A DNA stretch of 64,000 nucleotides from Dictyostelium fasciculatum (taxonomy: Eukaryota). The number at the start of each line of letters is the position of its first letter. Position 1 is the first letter of the stretch. The stretch spans positions 1,296,054 through 1,360,053 of the forward strand of contig NW_004457695.1 of NCBI RefSeq assembly GCF_000203815.1. Reading direction: 5' to 3'. The position numbers were made by a program, and so were the translations under genes. Below the pieces are notes generated by a model. It saw only the letters and a program-made list of their open reading frames with translations, was not told the origin of the DNA and did not search any database. Below are positions 3,001 to 62,242 of this stretch, one piece after another.

Positions 3001-3748
3001 CTTGGACCATTAACAAATTTAGTATTAATTAAAGGTTTGTTATCATAGAACCAATCATAGACAGCTTTATCATCTTCAGGATCCAATTCCATTTGTACTG
3101 CATATTCAACTTCAACATCTAGAATATTGTCTGCATAGTCAAGAGGAGGCTCTTCATCATCAAAGAGTGGGAATTTGATACGCTTGAAATGCTTTCTGTC
3201 ACGTTTTTCTCTCTTCATGGTGACCCACATTGAACCCCATTGAGCGAGATACACCGGTTCAATGACCAATGGAATCTCATTGACAAAGGTAATGGCACCG
3301 GTAATGTGATACAACACCTTTACATTTCTCACCTCTTCCCAAGGCATTGGCATGTTCTCCAACAACTTGAGAATGGCGTGTGGCACGTACTTTAACGCAC
3401 CGAGATAGACACGCTTGTCATGACGAAACTTTCTATTCGACATGTCACCATGATCCTTTATAATCTTTCTCAAGTGTTCTGGTGGCATATCTTCTTTTGG
3501 TGGATCGACATAACCAAACTTTCTCTTTTCACTATATCTCTTTGAATTTATTTGTAACCATTTCTTTGCTAAATAAATATAAATAAAAGTAACAAGTATA
3601 TAGGATAATAAAAGTAGTTAGTTAGTTTATCTTCTTTCTTTGTATACCATCTATAGATATCTATCTTACCTTTCTCTTGTAATTTAGAATCATCGAGTTG
3701 ATTATTATTTTCGCTACTACTATTGTTAGAAGTAGTAGTTGAAGACAT
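1..3748 (-). CDS. prpf8: Pre-mRNA-processing-splicing factor 8 (PRP8), N-terminal ~1140 aa; partial, continues past window start. Exons (minus strand): 3670..3748, 2995..3568, <1..2926; introns 3569..3669 and 2927..2994
   Basis: Translation matches the PRP8 N-terminus almost residue for residue ([34 protein letters not shown]...PMPWEEVR...; ...SKLQEK|[32 protein letters not shown] aligns to human [41 protein letters not shown]). The ORF track only reports 2985..3488. An upstream 79-nt exon starting at ATG 3748 and a GTAAGA..TTTAG intron restore the conserved N-terminal segment. A second GTATGT..TTTTAG intron joins YK|[16 protein letters not shown]. The region downstream to position 1 is continuously coding on the minus strand. 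Confidence 0.95.
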
Positions 3749-10085: not shown

Positions 10086-12123
10086 TATAATATCACAACC
10101 TAATACTACTACTACTGTAATATTACAATATTTATCTATTTTAATTATTTGTACAATCAAACTATAATAATAATAGAATAATAACAATTATAAGTCGACT
10201 TGAAGTTGTTATCAAACCGCACTGCGCAGAGCACTTCGTCGATTCGTTTTTTTTTTTATTCATTTGTATATCTATCTCTATCCTTTCATTCACACAGACA
10301 CGCTTGGTAATAGAGACCATGAACCTGCTGTGATCACTCATGTTGAAAAGGCCTTTATTTTAAATTTGTAGACTCAAATTTCATTAATATTATATTATTA
10401 TTTAGACACTAGTACTAAGTTAGTTGTTTGATGACCATCACCCGGTCAAGTCTATTGATCTAGACTTGACTCTATCCTTTCACCAAAGATGTGATTGGAT
10501 GATCATCTACCTTGCGAGTATTTGCTTTCCGGTCTCTTCATGCTTGACTGTTTAGAAGGTTGCACAGGCACGCTTGGTAATAGAGCCCATGAAACTCGAT
10601 GTGATAACACTCTCTTCTTTGATAAGCTCTTATTGCGAGAATTGTCATTATGGAAGACAATTCAGCTGATTTCAGTCATCATCTGAAAACCAAATTTAAT
10701 TGAACTTTATTATTATTATCTAGTGTCTAGATTAAGATGATCGAATGAAGAAGAGGACAACTTACAAACTTACAAATTGATCACAAACCTATTCCTTCTT
10801 CTTCTTCTTCTTTTTTAACTCCCATCTTTTTCGTATCTATCTTCACCAACCCACCCACTTGCTCACTCACTCACCCTGTCACGCATACTTATTAAAGATA
10901 GATAGATAGATAGATAGGATAGGATAAATAGATATAAAGCCTACCTACCTACCTACCGACCAACATCTTTCATTCTTTTCTGATCATAAAGATCTTTATC
11001 AAATCTCATACCCTCTACAAGCAAGTCAACCCACACCACGTTCAATTTCAATCAATCATGAAAGTCATTCATGTAGGATGCTTCAAGAGAACTGACACAC
11101 CACACAACACAACACACATATATATATATACATCCCACAAAACAGATATAATATGAAGAAGTACTTGGAATGTGAGTAACTGTGGTGGGGTTCGTATGTT
11201 GTGTGTGTGTGTATGATCAGTTCGTTCATGGTATTTTACTAACAGGAGGTAACCTCTCCTCTCCTCCTACACTTACTCCTCCTCAACAACAACGTTGTCA
11301 TGTTGCTGGGTGAGGTGGGATTCATTACTGTGAAATGACAAATCAAGTAACCACAGACACATACACACAATCGGGTGGGTAGTATCATATGAAAAGAGGA
11401 GGTGCAAGTATATGGCAGATATTTGTGCCATATATCATCCACTCTCCTCTTTTCTTCTTCCCTCTTCTTTCTCTTCAATTCATCCATCCAACAGATGATG
11501 AGATGGATGAATGTAATGTGTAATACTACATTTAATTATTCGTTTGCAGCATCCATCAATCAGCCCATACCATCTGATGGATGATGATTGATGATGTTGG
11601 TGATGATGATTGTCTACTTCTAAAATTGCAATCTTTTGTTTATTGCTGTTATTGCTGCTGTTGATGATGATCATCAACAATTCCATCATCCTCCTCCTCC
11701 TCCTCCACTCTAGAATACAAATACTCTTGATTAAGAACACTTGACTCTTTTTATTATTTCTCTCTGTATCGTATTGTATCATCCTTCATCAATCGATCAA
11801 ACCCAAACACCAAACACCAACAACTGTTGTTGCAGTTGTCGATAAATTATATTTATTTTTGGATGTGTAGAGTGGAACAAACAAGAAGGATGTATTGATT
11901 GTAGGTGGCACATAATATAATATATATATATATATTATATTGCTACCTCCTTGTTTGTTTTGTTGGTCTGGTGTGTGGTATTTAATTTCTAGTTGCTGTT
12001 ATTGTTGCAGCAACGCTGTTGTTATTGTTACCATCGCCAAGTTACGACCATACGATGAGAATCATGCAGGCTGGCAGACTGGCAGGTAGTAGTAGTAGAC
12101 TGATATAATAATTTATGATCACG

Positions 12124-45469: not shown

Positions 45470-45600
45470 AAAAATAGATTTGTATCAGATTAGGTGGTGA
45501 GACAAGAGATTCTATTGTGCTGACTATAGTTCAGCCAGCACCCTTTTCGCAAGAGTCTCTAGCTCCATCATCTTTGCCGTCATCATTGTTCTCCATTTCT
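45470..45600 (+). pseudogene. Internally deleted fragment of a paralogue of the downstream Cys-rich/GPI gene (intron-2/exon-3 junction fused to the last ~85 nt of the final exon)
   Basis: ...CTAAAAATAG|ATTTGTATCAGATTAGGTGGTGAGACAAGAGATTCT parallels ...CTCAAATAG|ATTTGCATTAAATTAGGTGCTGTTGGAGACTCATGT at 46242..46290. 45515..45600 (GCTGACTATAGTTCAGCCAGCACCCTTTTCGCAAGAGTCTCTAGCTCCATCATCTTTGCCGTCATCATTGTTCTCCATTTCTAA) is about 85% identical to 47508..47592, the GPI-signal end of the intact gene. Confidence 0.6.
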
Positions 45601-45854
45601 AAAAAAAAAAAAAAAGGTATAATTTAAAATACACAAATAAATTAAACCTAAAAAAATCAACAGACGAGCACCTAGAGAAGGCTTACCCAATTTAGTGATA
45701 CTACAGTGATCATTACCAAAATCGGAGTATCAACCGTTTTTTTTTTTGAATTTATTTTTAGTGGCCTTGCTGTTTTGTTGTTGCCTCGCGACATGGTGCC
45801 GTGTCAAATCCAGACCTTGTTTATTTTACAAATTTATTTATTTATATTTCGAAA

Positions 45855-46798: not shown

Positions 46799-47592
46799 TC
46801 CAGTGGTCCAAGAGCATCATTGGGACAATTATGTGAGGACACTGAAGATGGATTCTCCTATATGTATTGTCAAGAAGACCTTGTTTGTAATAGAGACAGT
46901 GAAGGTAATCATACTTGTGTCACTCCATTCTCTATCGCCGCTGGAAAGGGTTGTGATAGTGGTGCCGAAAACCTAGCTGGGTAAGTAAATTAAATGACCA
47001 ACCCCCTCAATTGCATGAGTGTAGCTATATCATCATATTAATTTGTTTTCCACTCCAATCTCTTAGAAACAATGGTTACTATATCTCACCATGTGAAGCT
47101 GGAGCTCATTGTTATATGGATGTATGTACCAAGCCCAACATCACTGCAGCATCAGTCAACTGTTCCACTGATAGCCACGTATGCTCATTTGTTGAATATT
47201 GTGCATGCAACAATGGAACTCTAATGGAAGGTGCCACTGGACAATGTACCTCATATTATATCAGCAACACCGAGACTATCAACAAGTGTGTTGAATACAC
47301 CAACGAGCTTTTGAGCTGTCTCAAGGACAATAAGTGCTCAGGCTATACTCTCGATCCAGAAGTCGAAGGTACCTACTTTGTTGCAAACTCTTGTGGTTAC
47401 AGACACTGTCGCAGTGAAATTTGCAACATCCAAGCTGAATGTACTGCTCAACCTCCAAGCCCACCTCCAACCTGTGGTGATACAAATTTGGACGAACTGC
47501 ACTTTTGTGCCGACTATAGTTCTGCCAGCACTCTTTTCGCAAGAGTTTCTTGCTCCATCCTCTTTGCCATCATCATTGCTCTCCTTTTCTAA
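45855..47592 (+). CDS. Secreted Cys-rich modular protein with a C-terminal GPI-anchor-type signal. Seven exons: 45855..46006, 46084..46180 or ..46219, 46252..46385, 46501..46575, 46640..46705, 46804..46980, 47067..47592
   Basis: Signal peptide MIKKIIVICILASLSIAGSRAQQ. Each exon encodes one small Cys-rich module (CEGIGYYYSCAEESQLCYQN...; ICIKLGAVGDSCIYDSQCMDGLDCYN...TCQYP; CRNDKECYFYLKCDPFEKQCV; IQCETNLQCSYGYQCNKTS; CGPRASLGQLCEDTEDGFSYMYCQEDLVCNRDSEGNHTCV...). Introns have GTATGT/GTAAGA/GTAAAT/GTAAGT donors, mostly phase 2. The protein ends ...SSASTLFARVSCSILFAIIIALLF* (omega-site plus hydrophobic tail). The exon-2 donor is ambiguous (GTAACT at 46181 or GTTTAT at 46220; both are phase 0). Confidence 0.7.
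46738..46800 (+). repeat. (TTTA)n / TTTATTTATTTA microsatellite inside intron 5 of the Cys-rich gene
   Basis: About 15 tandem TTTA units are directly visible. Confidence 0.95.
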
Positions 47593-47649
47593 CTAAATCA
47601 TAATAATGTATTATTTATTGATTCATGAAATTTTTCAAATTTTTTAAAA

Positions 47650-53716: not shown

Positions 53717-54202
53717 TTCAAACTTTTTGTTTGTATAATTTGTATTTCCTTTTAATCTCCATTCATCAATTGGTAAAGTAGTTGTTGTTGTTGTTGGTTA
53801 AGGTTTTGGTTTACTTGTATTTGTTGTTGGTTTGGGTTGGTTTGTTGATTTTTTTGCCATTCTATCCTTTTAAATTTATCTTTATAAAGTACAGTATGCC
53901 TCGTGTGCTTATTCATTGTAACGAAAAAATTATTCAATTTTTTTTAATTTTTTTTAATTTTTTTTTCGAAACCTGAGCCAACTTTGACAAAAAAACATTT
54001 CCTCTAAATCAAATCAACAGCAACAGATAAACTGTAACTACTATATAACTATGTGATATCTATATATGAGGATTAGATAATATAATAAGATAATGAATGT
54101 TTATTGAATATGTTTGGGTTTAAATACTCGCTGGGAGCAGAGTAGTATGACACTATGCTCACATAAACTTTTTTTTTGCCGGCAAAAAAACAACAAAAGA
54201 CT

Positions 54203-54273
54203 AGCTTTTCATCGTATCGATCGATGCACCTGTGGGTTATGAGCCCACCGCTCTACCACTGAGCTAAAAAGCT
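54203..54273 (-). tRNA. tRNA-Met (anticodon CAT), initiator-type
   Basis: Manual cloverleaf on the minus strand: AGCTTTT-TA-GCTC-AGTGGTA-GAGC-G-GTGGG-CTCATAA-CCCAC-AGGTG-CATCG-ATCGATA-CGATG-AAAAGCT. A1:U72, three G:C pairs at the base of the anticodon stem, and an A-initial T-loop (ATCGATA in place of TTCGAAT) are all eukaryotic initiator hallmarks. Confidence 0.85.
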
Positions 54274-54319
54274 TTGCTATATATGGCTTGTGAGACCATG
54301 AAAAATCCGGGTATATATA

Positions 54320-55312
54320 TACCCCCCTCTCTGCTGACGTCGTTGGGTACCGTCTAGCGTCCCACCTTGAGCGTCTTGACCGTAAGCCAGCAATGGAACC
54401 AGACAAAAGAGGAAGAGTACCTCTCAAACAAGTGTACCTCCAAAGGCTGACCATATCCAACGAAAAGTGGAACGTGTACGACCCGACCCCAGGCCAAAAG
54501 ATCTTAGCAACCGATGACAGAGTGTATCCAATGAATGCACTAGCTGCTCTATCTACCATCGTACTACCAAAGGGTCGAGATCTGGTTTGGAAATACGTAA
54601 CCAAATGTCTCCCGCTCGTCAGGGGTGACCCAGTCGCCTCCACCTGTGTGACGTGTGGCAAAGATGAATCCTCCAAGCATTTGTTCTTCCAATGCAAGGA
54701 GACCACGCTGCCAGTGAAGATACTGAAAGAGGTTACTGCTGCCAACAACATTCCACCACCAGTCTGGGACATCACCCTCCTCAACCTCAAACAAACTCCA
54801 ATGACTATAAACTTGGTCGCTGCAACACTAGAACGAATATGGTTCCGACGTAATGATCTACGTCACCAAAGAGATGAACCATTCACTGAACAATACCTGC
54901 GAGCTAGATTGATAAGTGATATGCGACATATTATAAAAGTAAACTGGGACAAGACGTTAGAATTATGTAACCGATGGCACTTGGCTCTAATGAACCAAAC
55001 CGACGAATCAGTAATACATACGATTACAGAACGAATACAAACTATCATCCTTCGATTCTCCTCCAACTACAACCATCCTACTGTCTACAAGATCGCACTA
55101 CCTAGTCATTTAGAGAGGTACAAGACTCTGCGTACTCTTCATCTATAATCGTTCACCCTCAGCTTCATTCCTCTCATCCTCTTCACCACCGCCATCCTCT
55201 TCTATTCTCTCTACAACTATCAATAATAATATTAATAATATAATAATTCACTAAATAATATGAATAATAATAATTATATCAACCCAGTATTGTAGCCTAT
55301 AGTGCTAGTGAG

Positions 55313-55346
<34 letters not shown>

Positions 55347-55645
55347 ATAGCGATATCTTTAACCAATTTATTTTTAGAACAAGCAACAATCCAAAACAAT
55401 CCAACATGCTTGACACTATACAAAAAGATACATGATCAACGTCCATACAACATGTATCATAGACATGGACAAACCCCCAGAACAAATTAACTTTAATTCT
55501 TCTTGAGATAATCTTTATTTCTTGCTGGTCAATTAAAAAGTAAAATTAATAAAACTTTGTAACTTCTGAGTACTACTCTTCCCGATAGGAGAGAACAGGA
55601 AAAGAATTACTTTAAAAAAAAAAAAAAATACCCCCCCCCCCCCCG
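54320..55645 (+). mobile_element. 5'-truncated non-LTR (LINE-type) retrotransposon of the tRNA-gene-targeted kind (TRE5-like), copy 1: ORF2 C-terminal ~250 codons, 3' UTR, internal A32, conserved 3' module ending in A15
   Basis: The ORF 54393..55148 encodes the characteristic LINE RT C-terminal segment (...VWKYVTKCLPLVRGDPVASTCVTCGKDESSKHLFFQCKETT... Cys/His knuckle). A32 lies at 55313..55344. The 3' module ACTACTCTTCCCGATAGGAGAGAACAGGAAAAGAATTACTTT plus A15 lies at 55573..55628. The element sits roughly 50-120 bp from the 5' end of the minus-strand tRNA-Met, with its own 5' end facing the tRNA. Its exact 5' boundary is not determinable by eye. Confidence 0.8.
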
Positions 55646-58834: not shown

Positions 58835-59503
<669 letters not shown>

Positions 59504-59816
59504 TTATCAATCAACAACATGTTGATTATTTATAGTTGTCTTTTATGATCGAGTCATAAAGAGTAAAAGAGATCACCATCCTTAAAGTGAAAGTCTGATT
59601 GCTGAGTATTAAAATATGACTCAAAATTCGCTGAAGCTCAGTGACTCACGAAATTATAAAATTAAAAAAAAATGATATTAAATAAAGAAAATTTGGTGAA
59701 TAAATACCACTTTTGTATATTTATTCAAAATAATAATTCATTTTATTCCTACCAACTACTCGATAGGGAATTGAGCAAAAAAAAAAAGATCCAGGTGCCT
59801 AAAACATAAAAAAGAG

Positions 59817-59887
59817 TGCACCAACCGAGAATCGAACTCGGATCGAATCCGTGGCAGGGATCCATTCTACCATTGAACCATTGGTGC
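59817..59887 (-). tRNA. tRNA-Gly (anticodon GCC)
   Basis: Minus strand: GCACCAA-TG-GTTC-AATGGTA-GAAT-G-GATCC-CTGCCAC-GGATT-CGAT-CCGAG-TTCGATT-CTCGG-TTGGTGCA. Canonical cloverleaf closely matching eukaryotic tRNA-Gly(GCC). Confidence 0.9.
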
Positions 59888-60123
59888 TACTGTTGAATAT
59901 TTTTCTGATCTCTGGGCCTGGACCCGCCCACGTGGGCGATTTCTTTTTTTTTTGAGGATAGAAAGCCATCTGACATCTCTAATACAATATGCAACACCTA
60001 AAGACGAGTGTCCACAATGGGGAGTAAATCGGCGCGAGAGTTGAGAGCGGCAGTCGGTTTTGGACGCACCCAAGGCTTAGGTTTCACCGCAAGTATGGTA
60101 ATTTCGGAGTTGTTGCCATATTT

Positions 60124-60500
60124 GCGTCAACCTCAAACAACCTCCAATGACCATAAACTTGATTGCTGCAACCCTCGAACGAATATGGTTCCGAAGTAAT
60201 GATCTACGCCACCAAAGAGATGAACCATTCACTGAACAATACCTGCGAGCTAGATTGCTAAACGATATGCGGCATATTATAAAAGTAAACTGGGACAAGA
60301 CGTTAGAATTATGTAATCGATGGCACTTGGCTCTAATGAACCAAACCGACGAATCAGTAATACATACGATTACAGAACGAATAAAAACTATCATCCTTCG
60401 ATTCTCCTCCAACTACAACCATCCTACTGTCTACAAGATAAAACACTACTCTTCCCGATAGGAGAGAACAGGAAAAGAATTACTTTAAAAAAAAAAAAAA
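60124..60500 (+). mobile_element. Second, shorter copy of the same TRE5-like retrotransposon: ORF2 extreme C-terminus fused by internal deletion to the conserved 3' module plus A14
   Basis: 60127..60438 is about 95% identical to 54781..55098 of copy 1 (ORF 60147..60461: TINLIAATLERIWFR...HLALMNQTDESVIHTITERI). It then jumps directly to ...AACACTACTCTTCCCGATAGGAGAGAACAGGAAAAGAATTACTTT-A14 (60441..60500). It lies about 240 bp from the tRNA-Gly 5' end in the same head-to-tRNA arrangement as copy 1. Confidence 0.8.
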
Positions 60501-60697
60501 AGCGATTTTTTTTTCTCTCATTTGGGCAAATTAGCTACATCGCTATCTACCTTCCTAACTAAAACTAATCACTATCTAACAACTACTACAAATTAAACAA
60601 CAATAATATTAAATCATTAATTTAAAAATAAAAAATATGACTTCAGTGGTGATTTATTAAAAACAAAATTTTAACGATGGATATGGAACACAAATCA

Positions 60698-60741
60698 GAA
60701 TCCGTGGCAGGGATCCATTCTACATTTGAACCATTGGTGCT
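60698..60741 (-). pseudogene. 5' half of a tRNA-Gly(GCC) gene (partial duplicate including the 5' flank)
   Basis: 60698..60760 (CAGAATCCGTGGCAGGGATCCATTCTACATTTGAACCATTGGTGCTACTGTTGAAGATTTTTCC) matches 59843..59905 of the intact tRNA-Gly and its upstream flank. The T-arm and 3' acceptor are absent. Confidence 0.6.
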
Positions 60742-60984
60742 ACTGTTGAAGATTTTTCCGGCATTCCCACATCTTTGGGGATAGAGGCCAGACTTCGATT
60801 GGTCAATAGCTCAATGTAAGAGTGGTTGTCATTGTTTCTTCATGTTTTATACACAAAAAATTGGTGCTCATCGAAGTTGTTTATTCAACTCGTCTTTATA
60901 GCTAAATCAAATCCAAACGACATCAAGCAATATTAGATTGGTTTTAAGTAAATAAATAAATAAATAAATAAATTAAATATATTT

Positions 60985-62242
60985 TTACACCTTTGTATTG
61001 TTTAGTTGATTCAAAAAATTAAAGATATCAATCCTTGGATAAATGAATGAATGTTTCATCAAAATGTCAATTGATTCATGTTCTGTTCTATTTTGAATTA
61101 AAAATTCAACTATATTTAAATGAGCATTATCAATTGCCTAAATGTAAATAAATAAATAAAATGAATTAAAAAAGAAATCAATATTTATATATTTATATAT
61201 TTAAAACATACATTTAACATTGCTTTTTTTTGAACAACCTTCAGTTCTATTAAAATGAAGAAACTATATATATATAATATTATATTAGTTTTTAATCTTT
61301 CTTTTTTTTCTTTTTTTTATTTTTTTATTTTTTTACCTTTAAAACATCTAAATTACCTTGAGAACAAGCCAAATCCATAATTTGATGATCAATTTTAGCC
61401 TCTGGTCTATTATCATGTAGATATTTTAAAATGTCCAAAGAACCTCTAAAGACAGCCTCTAAAAATTCAGAATTGTCCCAATCTGCCAATTCCTCTGGGT
61501 CCAATTCACTCCCATGACTCGCCAAATATTGATAACGAAAAGGATCTATATATTTGATAGCATCCAAATTATCACACCAAAACACACTTTTTAATATTAA
61601 AGGAGTCCATTCTACCTGTTGTTTTGCTAGTTTGTTTGTAAATAATTTGATGAGTGGCAAATTACCATTTGATATCACTCTATTTAGAGTATTCCTATGA
61701 TAACCTTCTGTTCTATTGAATAATAAAAATTCAACTATATCATTATAACCACCTCTTACAGCTCTATCAATTGCGTCTGTTGAACAAATAGAGTCTGACG
61801 ACGACGAGTCGACAGTTTGATCTCTATCTTGATAACGAAAATGTAACATTTTTACAATATCAATATTACCACTTCTAACTGCAGCATCAATGATACGAGT
61901 AACTTTAACATCTTTTGGCAGCCAATCATCCAATAGATGACCAAGAGTCGATACGGTAGCATTCTTGTGAGAGACGTATAGATTAGCTATATTATCACCA
62001 CGCATATTGACTTGATCTATAGGTGGTAAATGATGAACCAGAAAATCCCATGGCATTGCATAGGTTTGAATTAAAACTATAAAAAATTGTTTAGACAATT
62101 CTCTACCTTTGATATAGTTTATAGTTACAGAGTTTTGATCATCTTGATAAACAGATCTAGTTGATGGTAATGTTGATAATGATTGAAATATATAATTTCT
62201 TATATATAATATTCTAAATATATTTATAAATGTTATATTCAT
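60985..62242 (-). CDS. Ankyrin-repeat-like protein (~352 aa). Exons 61337..62242 and 60985..61137, intron 61138..61336
   Basis: Repeats ...GNIDIVKMLH..., ...GYNDIVEFLL..., ...GSLDILKYLH..., ...GNLDVLK|AIDNAHLNIVEFLIQN.... A GTAAAA..CATTTAG phase-0 intron adds a 50-codon terminal exon carrying a further repeat. The N-terminal ~60 aa are hydrophobic and odd, so the start codon is uncertain. Confidence 0.6.

Follow-up and report, generated by a model that had tools for sequence, protein, structure and literature searches.

Two probable TRE5-type retrotransposon insertions upstream of tRNA genes in Cavenderia fasciculata, one internally deleted and lying beside a half tRNA-Gly

The closest described relatives of the sequences analysed here are the TRE5 elements, retrotransposons without long terminal repeats (non-LTR) of dictyostelid amoebae that are found next to transfer RNA (tRNA) genes. 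In Dictyostelium fasciculatum, the listed families Df_TRE5-A.1, Df_TRE5-A.2, Df_TRE5-A.3 and Df_TRE5-B count 56, 20, 7 and 27 copies, respectively (110 in total), mostly partial and located 31-98 base pairs (bp) 5' of tRNA genes (PMC5006619, Table 1), and some of the consensus sequences given are themselves short and partial, such as the 1275 bp of Df_TRE5-A.2 (PMC5006619). The 5' end of a TRE5 element faces the tRNA gene (PMC3159450), and TRE5-A requires the B box (PMC5006619, PMC5391098), for which the dictyostelid consensus is GTTCRANNC, that of the A box being TRRYNNARYNG (PMC5391098). TRE5-A.2 of D. discoideum carries a deletion in its second open reading frame (ORF2) and a 72-bp deletion of its BC-module, keeps the 3' end, which reverse transcription requires, and is mobilised in trans, its intact ORF1 acting in cis (PMC3159450). 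Here, we describe two retroelement copies in a 64-kilobase (kb) window of the genome of Cavenderia fasciculata (formerly D. fasciculatum), the numbering of which is used for all the coordinates below. Both are considered TRE5-type insertions of the published Df_TRE5 families, copy 2 being internally deleted and located beside a tRNA-Gly(GCC) gene, from which a neighbouring half-tRNA would derive by duplication at the DNA level. As a whole, this explanation is judged likely.

Two tRNA genes were detected in the window, both on the minus strand, by ARAGORN and again by Rfam, which gave no other match. The intact tRNA-Gly(GCC), the RNA polymerase III (Pol III) target gene of copy 2, lies at 59816..59887 (minus strand; ARAGORN 59816/59817-59887; Rfam RF00005, 64.9 bits), where the original prediction had put it (59817..59887), and has both an A box, TGGTTCAATGG, at +8 and a B box, GTTCGATTC. 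The target gene of copy 1, a tRNA-Met(CAT), lies at 54202..54273 (minus strand; ARAGORN; Rfam, 59.4 bits). Each element copy is on the plus strand to the right of its own tRNA gene, with the 5' end towards it, and starts 54 nucleotides (nt) (copy 1) or about 61 nt (copy 2) from the tRNA 5' end, within the published 31-98 bp; the corresponding distances to the start of the target-site duplication are 45 and 48 nt. The two copies are therefore both associated with tRNA genes, as had been noted from the sequence, a behaviour that defines TRE5, is already published for D. fasciculatum (PMC5006619) and adds no new inference. As a separate observation, the tRNA-Met has a variant B box, GATCGATAC, and looks like an initiator tRNA because of its A1:U72 pair, the three G-C pairs in its anticodon stem and its AUCGAUA T loop.

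The limits of copy 2 were set by its target-site duplication, which was located by a motif scan of the 64 kb. The left copy, GCGATTTCTTTTT, is at 59936..59948 and the right copy, GCGATTTTTTTTT, at 60502..60514 (both read on the plus strand). With at most one mismatch, GCGATTT[C/T]TTTTT has only two matches in the whole window, exactly at both junctions of copy 2, against a chance expectation of 0.28. Together with an A15 tail and the homology to copy 1, this pair delimits a complete insertion of ~548-553 bp at 59949..60501 (plus strand), the 5' limit of which is ambiguous from 59949 to 59954 owing to a T run. The limits first proposed, 60124..60500, were thus too narrow. Between the tRNA-Gly 5' end and the insertion site there is a 48-nt spacer (59888..59935, no strand), the first 18 nt of which are shared with the half-tRNA locus, the remainder being rich in guanine and cytosine (GC). 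A GC-rich island (GC ~0.5) extends over 59906-59938, between the conserved 18-nt leader of the tRNA-Gly and the insertion site, and starts at the exact point where the flanks of the two tRNA-Gly sequences diverge. At 59925-59938 there is also a perfect 14-nt palindrome, CGCCCACGTGGGCG, which includes CACGTG and whose last 3 nt are the start of the left duplication.

Pairwise alignment of the two copies upheld the view of copy 2 as a second, internally deleted copy of the same non-LTR retrotransposon. Its 3'-terminal ORF2 coding block (60127..60439, plus strand) matches copy 1 54781-55093 without gaps, and the identity of 60127-60442 to 54781-55096 is 299/316 (94.6%), in agreement with the ~95% predicted; the block also matches a hidden Markov model (HMM) of dictyostelid ORF2 C-termini (E 1.1e-26) and ends without the last ~17 codons of ORF2. 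The deletion junction, found by alignment to copy 1 at 60440..60449 (plus strand), consists of AAAA and then CACTAC, in the context CAAGAT-AAAA-CACTAC-TCTTCCC. There, 475 bp of copy 1 (55102-55576) are missing, for which ~480 bp had been estimated. In copy 1, this stretch has CACTAC at its left edge and ACTAC at its right edge, and the resulting 5-nt ACTAC microhomology is what would be expected from template jumping or slippage of a reverse transcriptase. The junction leads into a conserved 42-nt 3' terminus followed by A15 (60445..60501, plus strand), 100% identical to copy 1 55572-55628 (repeat family D11). The direct join to the conserved 3' module was thus correctly described, but the tail counts 15 adenines and not 14.

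Beyond this deletion, which was the one originally described, copy 2 holds a second internal junction, to a 173-nt 5' segment at 59954..60126 (plus strand) that lies inside the duplication pair. The GC content of the segment is 0.48, compared to 0.46 in the coding part of the element and 0.26-0.31 in intergenic DNA, and it includes an ATG-led ORF of ~39 codons in a frame other than that of the ORF2 tail. The segment matched neither strand of copy 1 nor any other part of the window, and no match was found among ORF2 and ORF1 proteins, annotated proteins or Rfam. The segment is presumably the 5' untranslated region (UTR) of the element plus the start of ORF1. Neither a twin-priming inversion nor a different stretch of copy 1 was retained as its source (no match on either strand), and an annotated ORF1 was likewise discarded (no homologue found). 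On the other side of copy 2, an AT-rich spacer of 183 bp (60515..60697, no strand, GC 0.26) separates it from the half-tRNA, and neither repeat nor coding signal was found in it. A known small RNA within the 5' segment or the spacer was rejected, as Rfam gives the two tRNAs only. Two scans of metagenomes with 22-24-mers from the element found nothing.

Copy 1 is a 5'-truncated TRE5-type element at 54328..55628 (plus strand), as judged from its duplication and from its homology to DFA_07446 and to D. discoideum ORF2. The truncation falls inside ORF2, and what follows is, in order, the C-terminal 273 codons of ORF2 (stop at 55146-55148), a 164-nt 3' UTR, A33 (55313-55345), a 268-nt 3' module and A15. 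Its duplication, ATACCCCCC, at 54319-54327 and 55628-55636, occurs only these two times in the 64 kb. Both copies, therefore, have the hallmarks of non-LTR elements, with A15 tails and duplications unique in the window, to which copy 1 adds its start inside ORF2. No sign was found that the 3' module of copy 1 duplicates a 5' B-module. A C14 homopolymer (55631-55644) immediately after the 3' duplication of copy 1, where the 5' duplication copy has C6 (54322-54327), is of a length unusual for this AT-rich genome, and could come from insertion into a poly-C tract or from later expansion of the tract.

At the protein level, copy 1 encodes an ORF2 tail with 95-97% identity to the C. fasciculata hypothetical proteins DFA_07446 (97%) and DFA_09832, because of which the DNA is assigned to C. 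fasciculata. The nearest relatives outside this species are ORF2 proteins of D. discoideum (33-35% identity, E ~1e-43; HMMER with the longest C. fasciculata protein as query). For comparison, a D. discoideum chromosome locus holding one related ORF2 was used (L001; GCA_000004695.1, CM000152.2). There, with the geometry seen in the window, the element is on the plus strand and starts 45 nt upstream of a minus-strand tRNA-Val, with a 14-bp duplication, GATTAATCACCAAT, and has a B-module before ORF1 and again after ORF2, followed by a C-module; by the published definition it is TRE5-A (PMC5006619, PMC3159450). The ORF2 protein of the window is 30% identical to this TRE5-A ORF2 over 236 amino acids, to the C-terminus. 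In addition, the TRE5-A order of ORF2 stop, A55, B-module, A24, C-module and A12 parallels that of copy 1. An internal poly(A) between ORF2 and the 3' modules is thus present in both species, A33 in C. fasciculata and A55 plus A24 in D. discoideum (~11150-11207 and 11505-11528 of the comparison locus), which suggests that, in both lineages, the 3' modules were gained after a poly(A) tail that was already there. As a further observation on this locus, the start of the TRE5-A A-module, CAACAACAATCTCTTTTTTTGATTATTTC, is present three times in tandem within 3170-3620 (~3170, 3363 and 3554), and two 444-amino-acid ORF1 genes precede the single ORF2, as in a TRE-TRE tandem or an amplification of the A-module at the tRNA-Val gene.

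Compared to these systems, the window copies resemble the Df_TRE5 families in being non-LTR elements of the same species at the published distance from tRNA genes; the likeness is one of species and position. With D. discoideum TRE5-A.1 (DRE) they share a 5' end facing the tRNA gene at ~50 bp, a duplication of the 12-16-bp class, an oligo(A) tail, an internal poly(A) after the ORF2 stop and an extra 3' module that bears the real 3' terminus, as well as the 30% identity over the C-terminal 236 amino acids of ORF2; they differ in showing no nucleotide similarity to it and in being without ORF1, endonuclease and reverse transcriptase. The likeness of copy 2 to TRE5-A.2 lies in two deletions, one internal to ORF2 and another in the 3' module, and in the retained 3' terminus, but TRE5-A.2 keeps its A and B modules and a complete ORF1 and has proven mobility in trans, whereas copy 2 preserves no more than 173 nt of 5' sequence, together with a useless ORF2 tail, and is known here from one locus. 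Mammalian L1, in its 5'-truncated or internally deleted forms and in U6/L1 chimeras, shows the same hallmarks of target-primed reverse transcription and microhomology at internal junctions, but it does not target Pol III genes, and the half-tRNA is separate from the element, whereas U6 is joined to L1 in the chimeras.

By homology with D. discoideum TRE5-A, the element proteins would be directed to an active tRNA gene by recognising its TFIIIC/TFIIIB complex, the DNA would be nicked ~50 bp upstream of it and the polyadenylated element RNA would be reverse-transcribed in place, by target-primed reverse transcription. The expected product has its 5' end towards the tRNA, a 3' oligo(A) and a target-site duplication of 9-13 bp. 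Copy 1 would be a plain 5'-truncated insertion of this kind at tRNA-Met. At tRNA-Gly(GCC), copy 2 would be an insertion of ~550 bp whose RNA or cDNA source had presumably already lost two internal stretches. The first of these would comprise all the sequence between the 173-nt 5' segment and the last ~105 codons of ORF2, and the second the 475 nt in which lie the stop of ORF2, the 3' UTR, the internal A33 and the greater part of the 3' module. The 42-nt 3' terminus and tail that remain in copy 2 may be the part that a stringent reverse transcriptase must recognise. As exactly this part is kept despite the internal deletions, copy 2 resembles the non-autonomous TRE5-A.2, and it encodes nothing functional.

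The extent of copy 2 and the direction of the deletion both admit other readings. If copy 2 were limited to 60127-60501, it would be a 5'-truncated insertion 240 bp from the tRNA gene and the 173 nt upstream of it would be host DNA, as might be thought from the lack of any match of this segment to copy 1 or to a protein and from the likewise GC-rich host spacer (59888-59935) that adjoins it. This is most unlikely: the 12/13-nt repeat at 59936 and 60502 is found nowhere else in the 64 kb and puts the insertion 48 nt away from the tRNA, as is canonical for TRE5, repeats at 60126/60502 do not exceed 3 nt, and the GC content of the segment is that of the element and not of intergenic DNA. It could also be that copy 1 is the derived form, as a tandem of two insertions or a 3' transduction behind a true A33 tail, and that copy 2 has no deletion; the A33 of copy 1, with 268 nt and a second A15 tail after it, and the frequency of TRE-TRE tandems at tRNA genes (PMC5391098) speak for this possibility, which is largely refuted and hardly tenable. 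The unique duplication of copy 1 encloses all of 54328-55628, no match to the 5' flank follows its A33, the 42-nt terminus belongs to the family, as copy 2 also ends in it, and the same layout of internal poly(A) and module is present in D. discoideum TRE5-A. Moreover, the ORF2 end of copy 1 (..IALPSHLERY..) aligns with the final residues of ORF2 in D. discoideum TRE5-A (..IELPKHLKKY..), and these conserved codons are the ~17 lost from copy 2. Because of this conservation, and because the outer duplication counters a tandem of two insertions, copy 2 is taken as the truly deleted form, with no insertion in copy 1.

A different question is whether the deletions of copy 2 are its own or belong to a SINE-like (short interspersed element) non-autonomous TRE5 subfamily of ~550 bp, made of a 5' head, the ORF2 tail and the 42-nt terminus and copied in trans like TRE5-A.2. 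Such a subfamily would show the junctions of copy 2, ATTTGCG followed by TCAACCTC and CAAGATAAAACACTAC followed by TCTTCCC. We regard it as a possibility of some weight, though an unlikely one. In its favour, the duplication of copy 2 is clean and its 3' terminus, 100% identical to that of copy 1, is intact, TRE5-A.2 offers a precedent for ORF2 and 3'-module deletions with mobilisation in trans (PMC3159450), and partial Df consensus sequences as short as the 1275 bp of Df_TRE5-A.2 have been published (PMC5006619). In addition, variant residues of copy 2 are present in other genomic copies, LLND in DFA_09832 and LIAAT in DFA_08725, because of which copy 2 would belong to a lineage different from that of copy 1 and not descend from copy 1 itself; 6 of the 12 codons changed between both copies are synonymous, which weakly suggests that part of their divergence arose in selected, active lineages. 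These common variants, however, speak to the lineage only and not to mobilisation of the deleted form, and TRE5-A.2 keeps an intact, cis-acting ORF1, whereas any 5' ORF in copy 2 counts no more than 39 codons. That copy 2 is an undescribed miniature non-autonomous TRE5 derivative of ~550 bp, the half-tRNA then being a possible by-product of the repair of TRE5-induced breaks at Pol III genes, seems improbable.

The half-tRNA relic lies at 60698..60760 (minus strand). Its segment 60698-60758 is identical to 59845-59905 at 58 of 61 positions, and to the longer 63-nt interval at 59 of 63, with an offset of 853 bp. The duplicated 63-nt segment of the original prediction is, therefore, real, but its left interval, given as 59843..59905, was off by 2 nt, and its position "about 800 bp further on" becomes the measured 853 bp. 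It comprises tRNA positions 1-43 (60740 down to 60698) plus 18 nt, or at most 20 nt, of the 5' leader, and is without B box, T arm and 3' acceptor strand. Its A box, broken by two D-loop substitutions, reads TGGTTCAAATG in place of TGGTTCAATGG and departs from the consensus. It was not called as a tRNA by ARAGORN or Rfam. As the B box is absent, the A box is broken and TRE5-A needs a B box, the relic should not bind TFIIIC and hence should not serve as a TRE5 target. Its flanks showed no further similarity: the local-alignment scores were reached by 88-340 of 500 shuffles, and BLAST found nothing further. The relic lies 196 bp past the end of copy 2, outside its duplication and on the opposite strand to copy 2, and no flanking duplication of its own was found. 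Before the insertion of copy 2, ~290 bp separated it from the tRNA-Gly. As a side observation, a second occurrence of the 9-mer ATTGGTGCT (tRNA-Gly positions 1-8 plus 1 nt) at 60860-60868, 127 nt to the right of that of the half-tRNA (60733), is probably a coincidence, as a 9-mer repeat within 420 bp has a chance of ~0.3.

For the origin of this relic, either a segmental duplication or a template switch had been proposed, and it is the duplication at the DNA level that the evidence favours. The relic lies 196 bp outside the duplication of copy 2 and on the opposite strand, has no duplication of its own and shares with the tRNA gene a leader of 18-20 nt that does not look transcribed; because of these features, an inert DNA-level paralogue of the neighbouring tRNA-Gly, unrelated to the insertion mechanics of copy 2, fits better than a template switch. 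It could be either a doubly eroded tandem paralogue of the tRNA-Gly or a single short repair patch templated by, and copied from, that gene. In D. discoideum, tRNA genes often occur in pairs. That local rearrangements concentrate at tRNA genes is known (PMC2888827). By contrast, an RNA-mediated origin, by a template switch of the TRE5 reverse transcriptase onto nascent pre-tRNA-Gly, as in U6/L1, or by retro-copying of a pre-tRNA fragment, is very unlikely. The patch does begin near a possible Pol III transcript start and end inside the tRNA, it adjoins an active-looking retrotransposon target, and an A9-10 run follows it by 183 nt on the minus strand; however, this run is itself part of the duplicated target of copy 2, the patch is fused to no end of an element, and priming at the 3' end would preserve the 3' half and not the 5' half. 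The typical eukaryotic pre-tRNA leader is ~10 nt long, shorter than the 18-20 nt in common here. D. discoideum TRE5-A is reported to form no processed pseudogenes (PMC3159450).

Other candidates for the half-tRNA were also discarded: a tandem duplication of a 287-bp unit, as the homology is limited to 61-63 nt; a long target-site duplication, as the repeat copies do not adjoin the ends of the element; a tRNA-derived SINE, as this single patch without homology past its edges has no B box and a mutated A box and is undetected as a tRNA; and a chimera of the U6/L1 type, as the half-tRNA is not fused to the element and lies on the opposite strand, 196 bp past the right duplication, with no flanking repeat. 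A third, degraded TRE5 fragment upstream of the half-tRNA was considered on the basis of a weak TTTGGGGATAGA motif and a tblastn match to the C-terminus of D. discoideum ORF2 (E 0.061), and was dismissed: these signals are no better than in shuffled sequences (109-340 of 500 reach the score), and the HMM of the ORF2 C-terminus misses the region.

Some observations weigh against the explanation that we prefer, namely TRE5-type insertions at both tRNA genes, an internally deleted copy 2 and a half-tRNA duplicated at the DNA level. The Pfam zf-RVT match reaches 21.6 bits, below the curated cut-off of 27.5. The reverse transcriptase and endonuclease domains are absent from the window, so that the choice of TRE5 over TRE3 rests on position, orientation and the C-terminal 236 amino acids. 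The 173-nt 5' segment could be tied to no TRE5 sequence when copy 1, ORF1 and ORF2 proteins and annotated proteins were compared. A 6-bp hairpin predicted in the 3' terminus is no better than in shuffled sequences (z = -0.61), and was rejected as a functional 3' hairpin. Finally, the borders of the half-tRNA are sharp on both sides, which a simple tandem duplication alone does not predict.

With respect to its neighbourhood, copy 2 lies in a 1.9-kb intergenic region, the sort of safe site published for TRE elements, whose two bordering genes are both on the minus strand, one of the Arf family (58835-59452) and one with ankyrin repeats (61325-62242). Elsewhere in the window, and unrelated to the retroelements, a 96-nt direct repeat with 88% identity (45512-45607 and 47502-47597) codes for the hydrophobic tail (..FCADYSSASTLFARVSCSILFAIIIALLF) at the C-terminus of two Cys-rich genes that are paralogues and neighbours.

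The locus is a routine instance of a retrotransposon family already known from the species in which it was described, and a textbook case of safe landing in the ~50 bp upstream of tRNA genes by retrotransposons of gene-dense amoeba genomes, so that its importance hardly goes further than annotation; the half-tRNA serves above all to mark a local rearrangement at a tRNA gene. The locus does show that a deeply diverged dictyostelid has the layout of D. discoideum TRE5-A, with an internal poly(A) and then a 3' module, and the same tendency towards internal deletion with the 3' terminus preserved. Should this deleted form prove to be multi-copy, the cis-requirements for TRE5 mobilisation would be narrowed to ~42 nt, and if copy 2 were truly a miniature derivative, the 42-nt terminus and poly(A) would be enough for mobilisation in trans and for tRNA targeting without ORF1 in cis.

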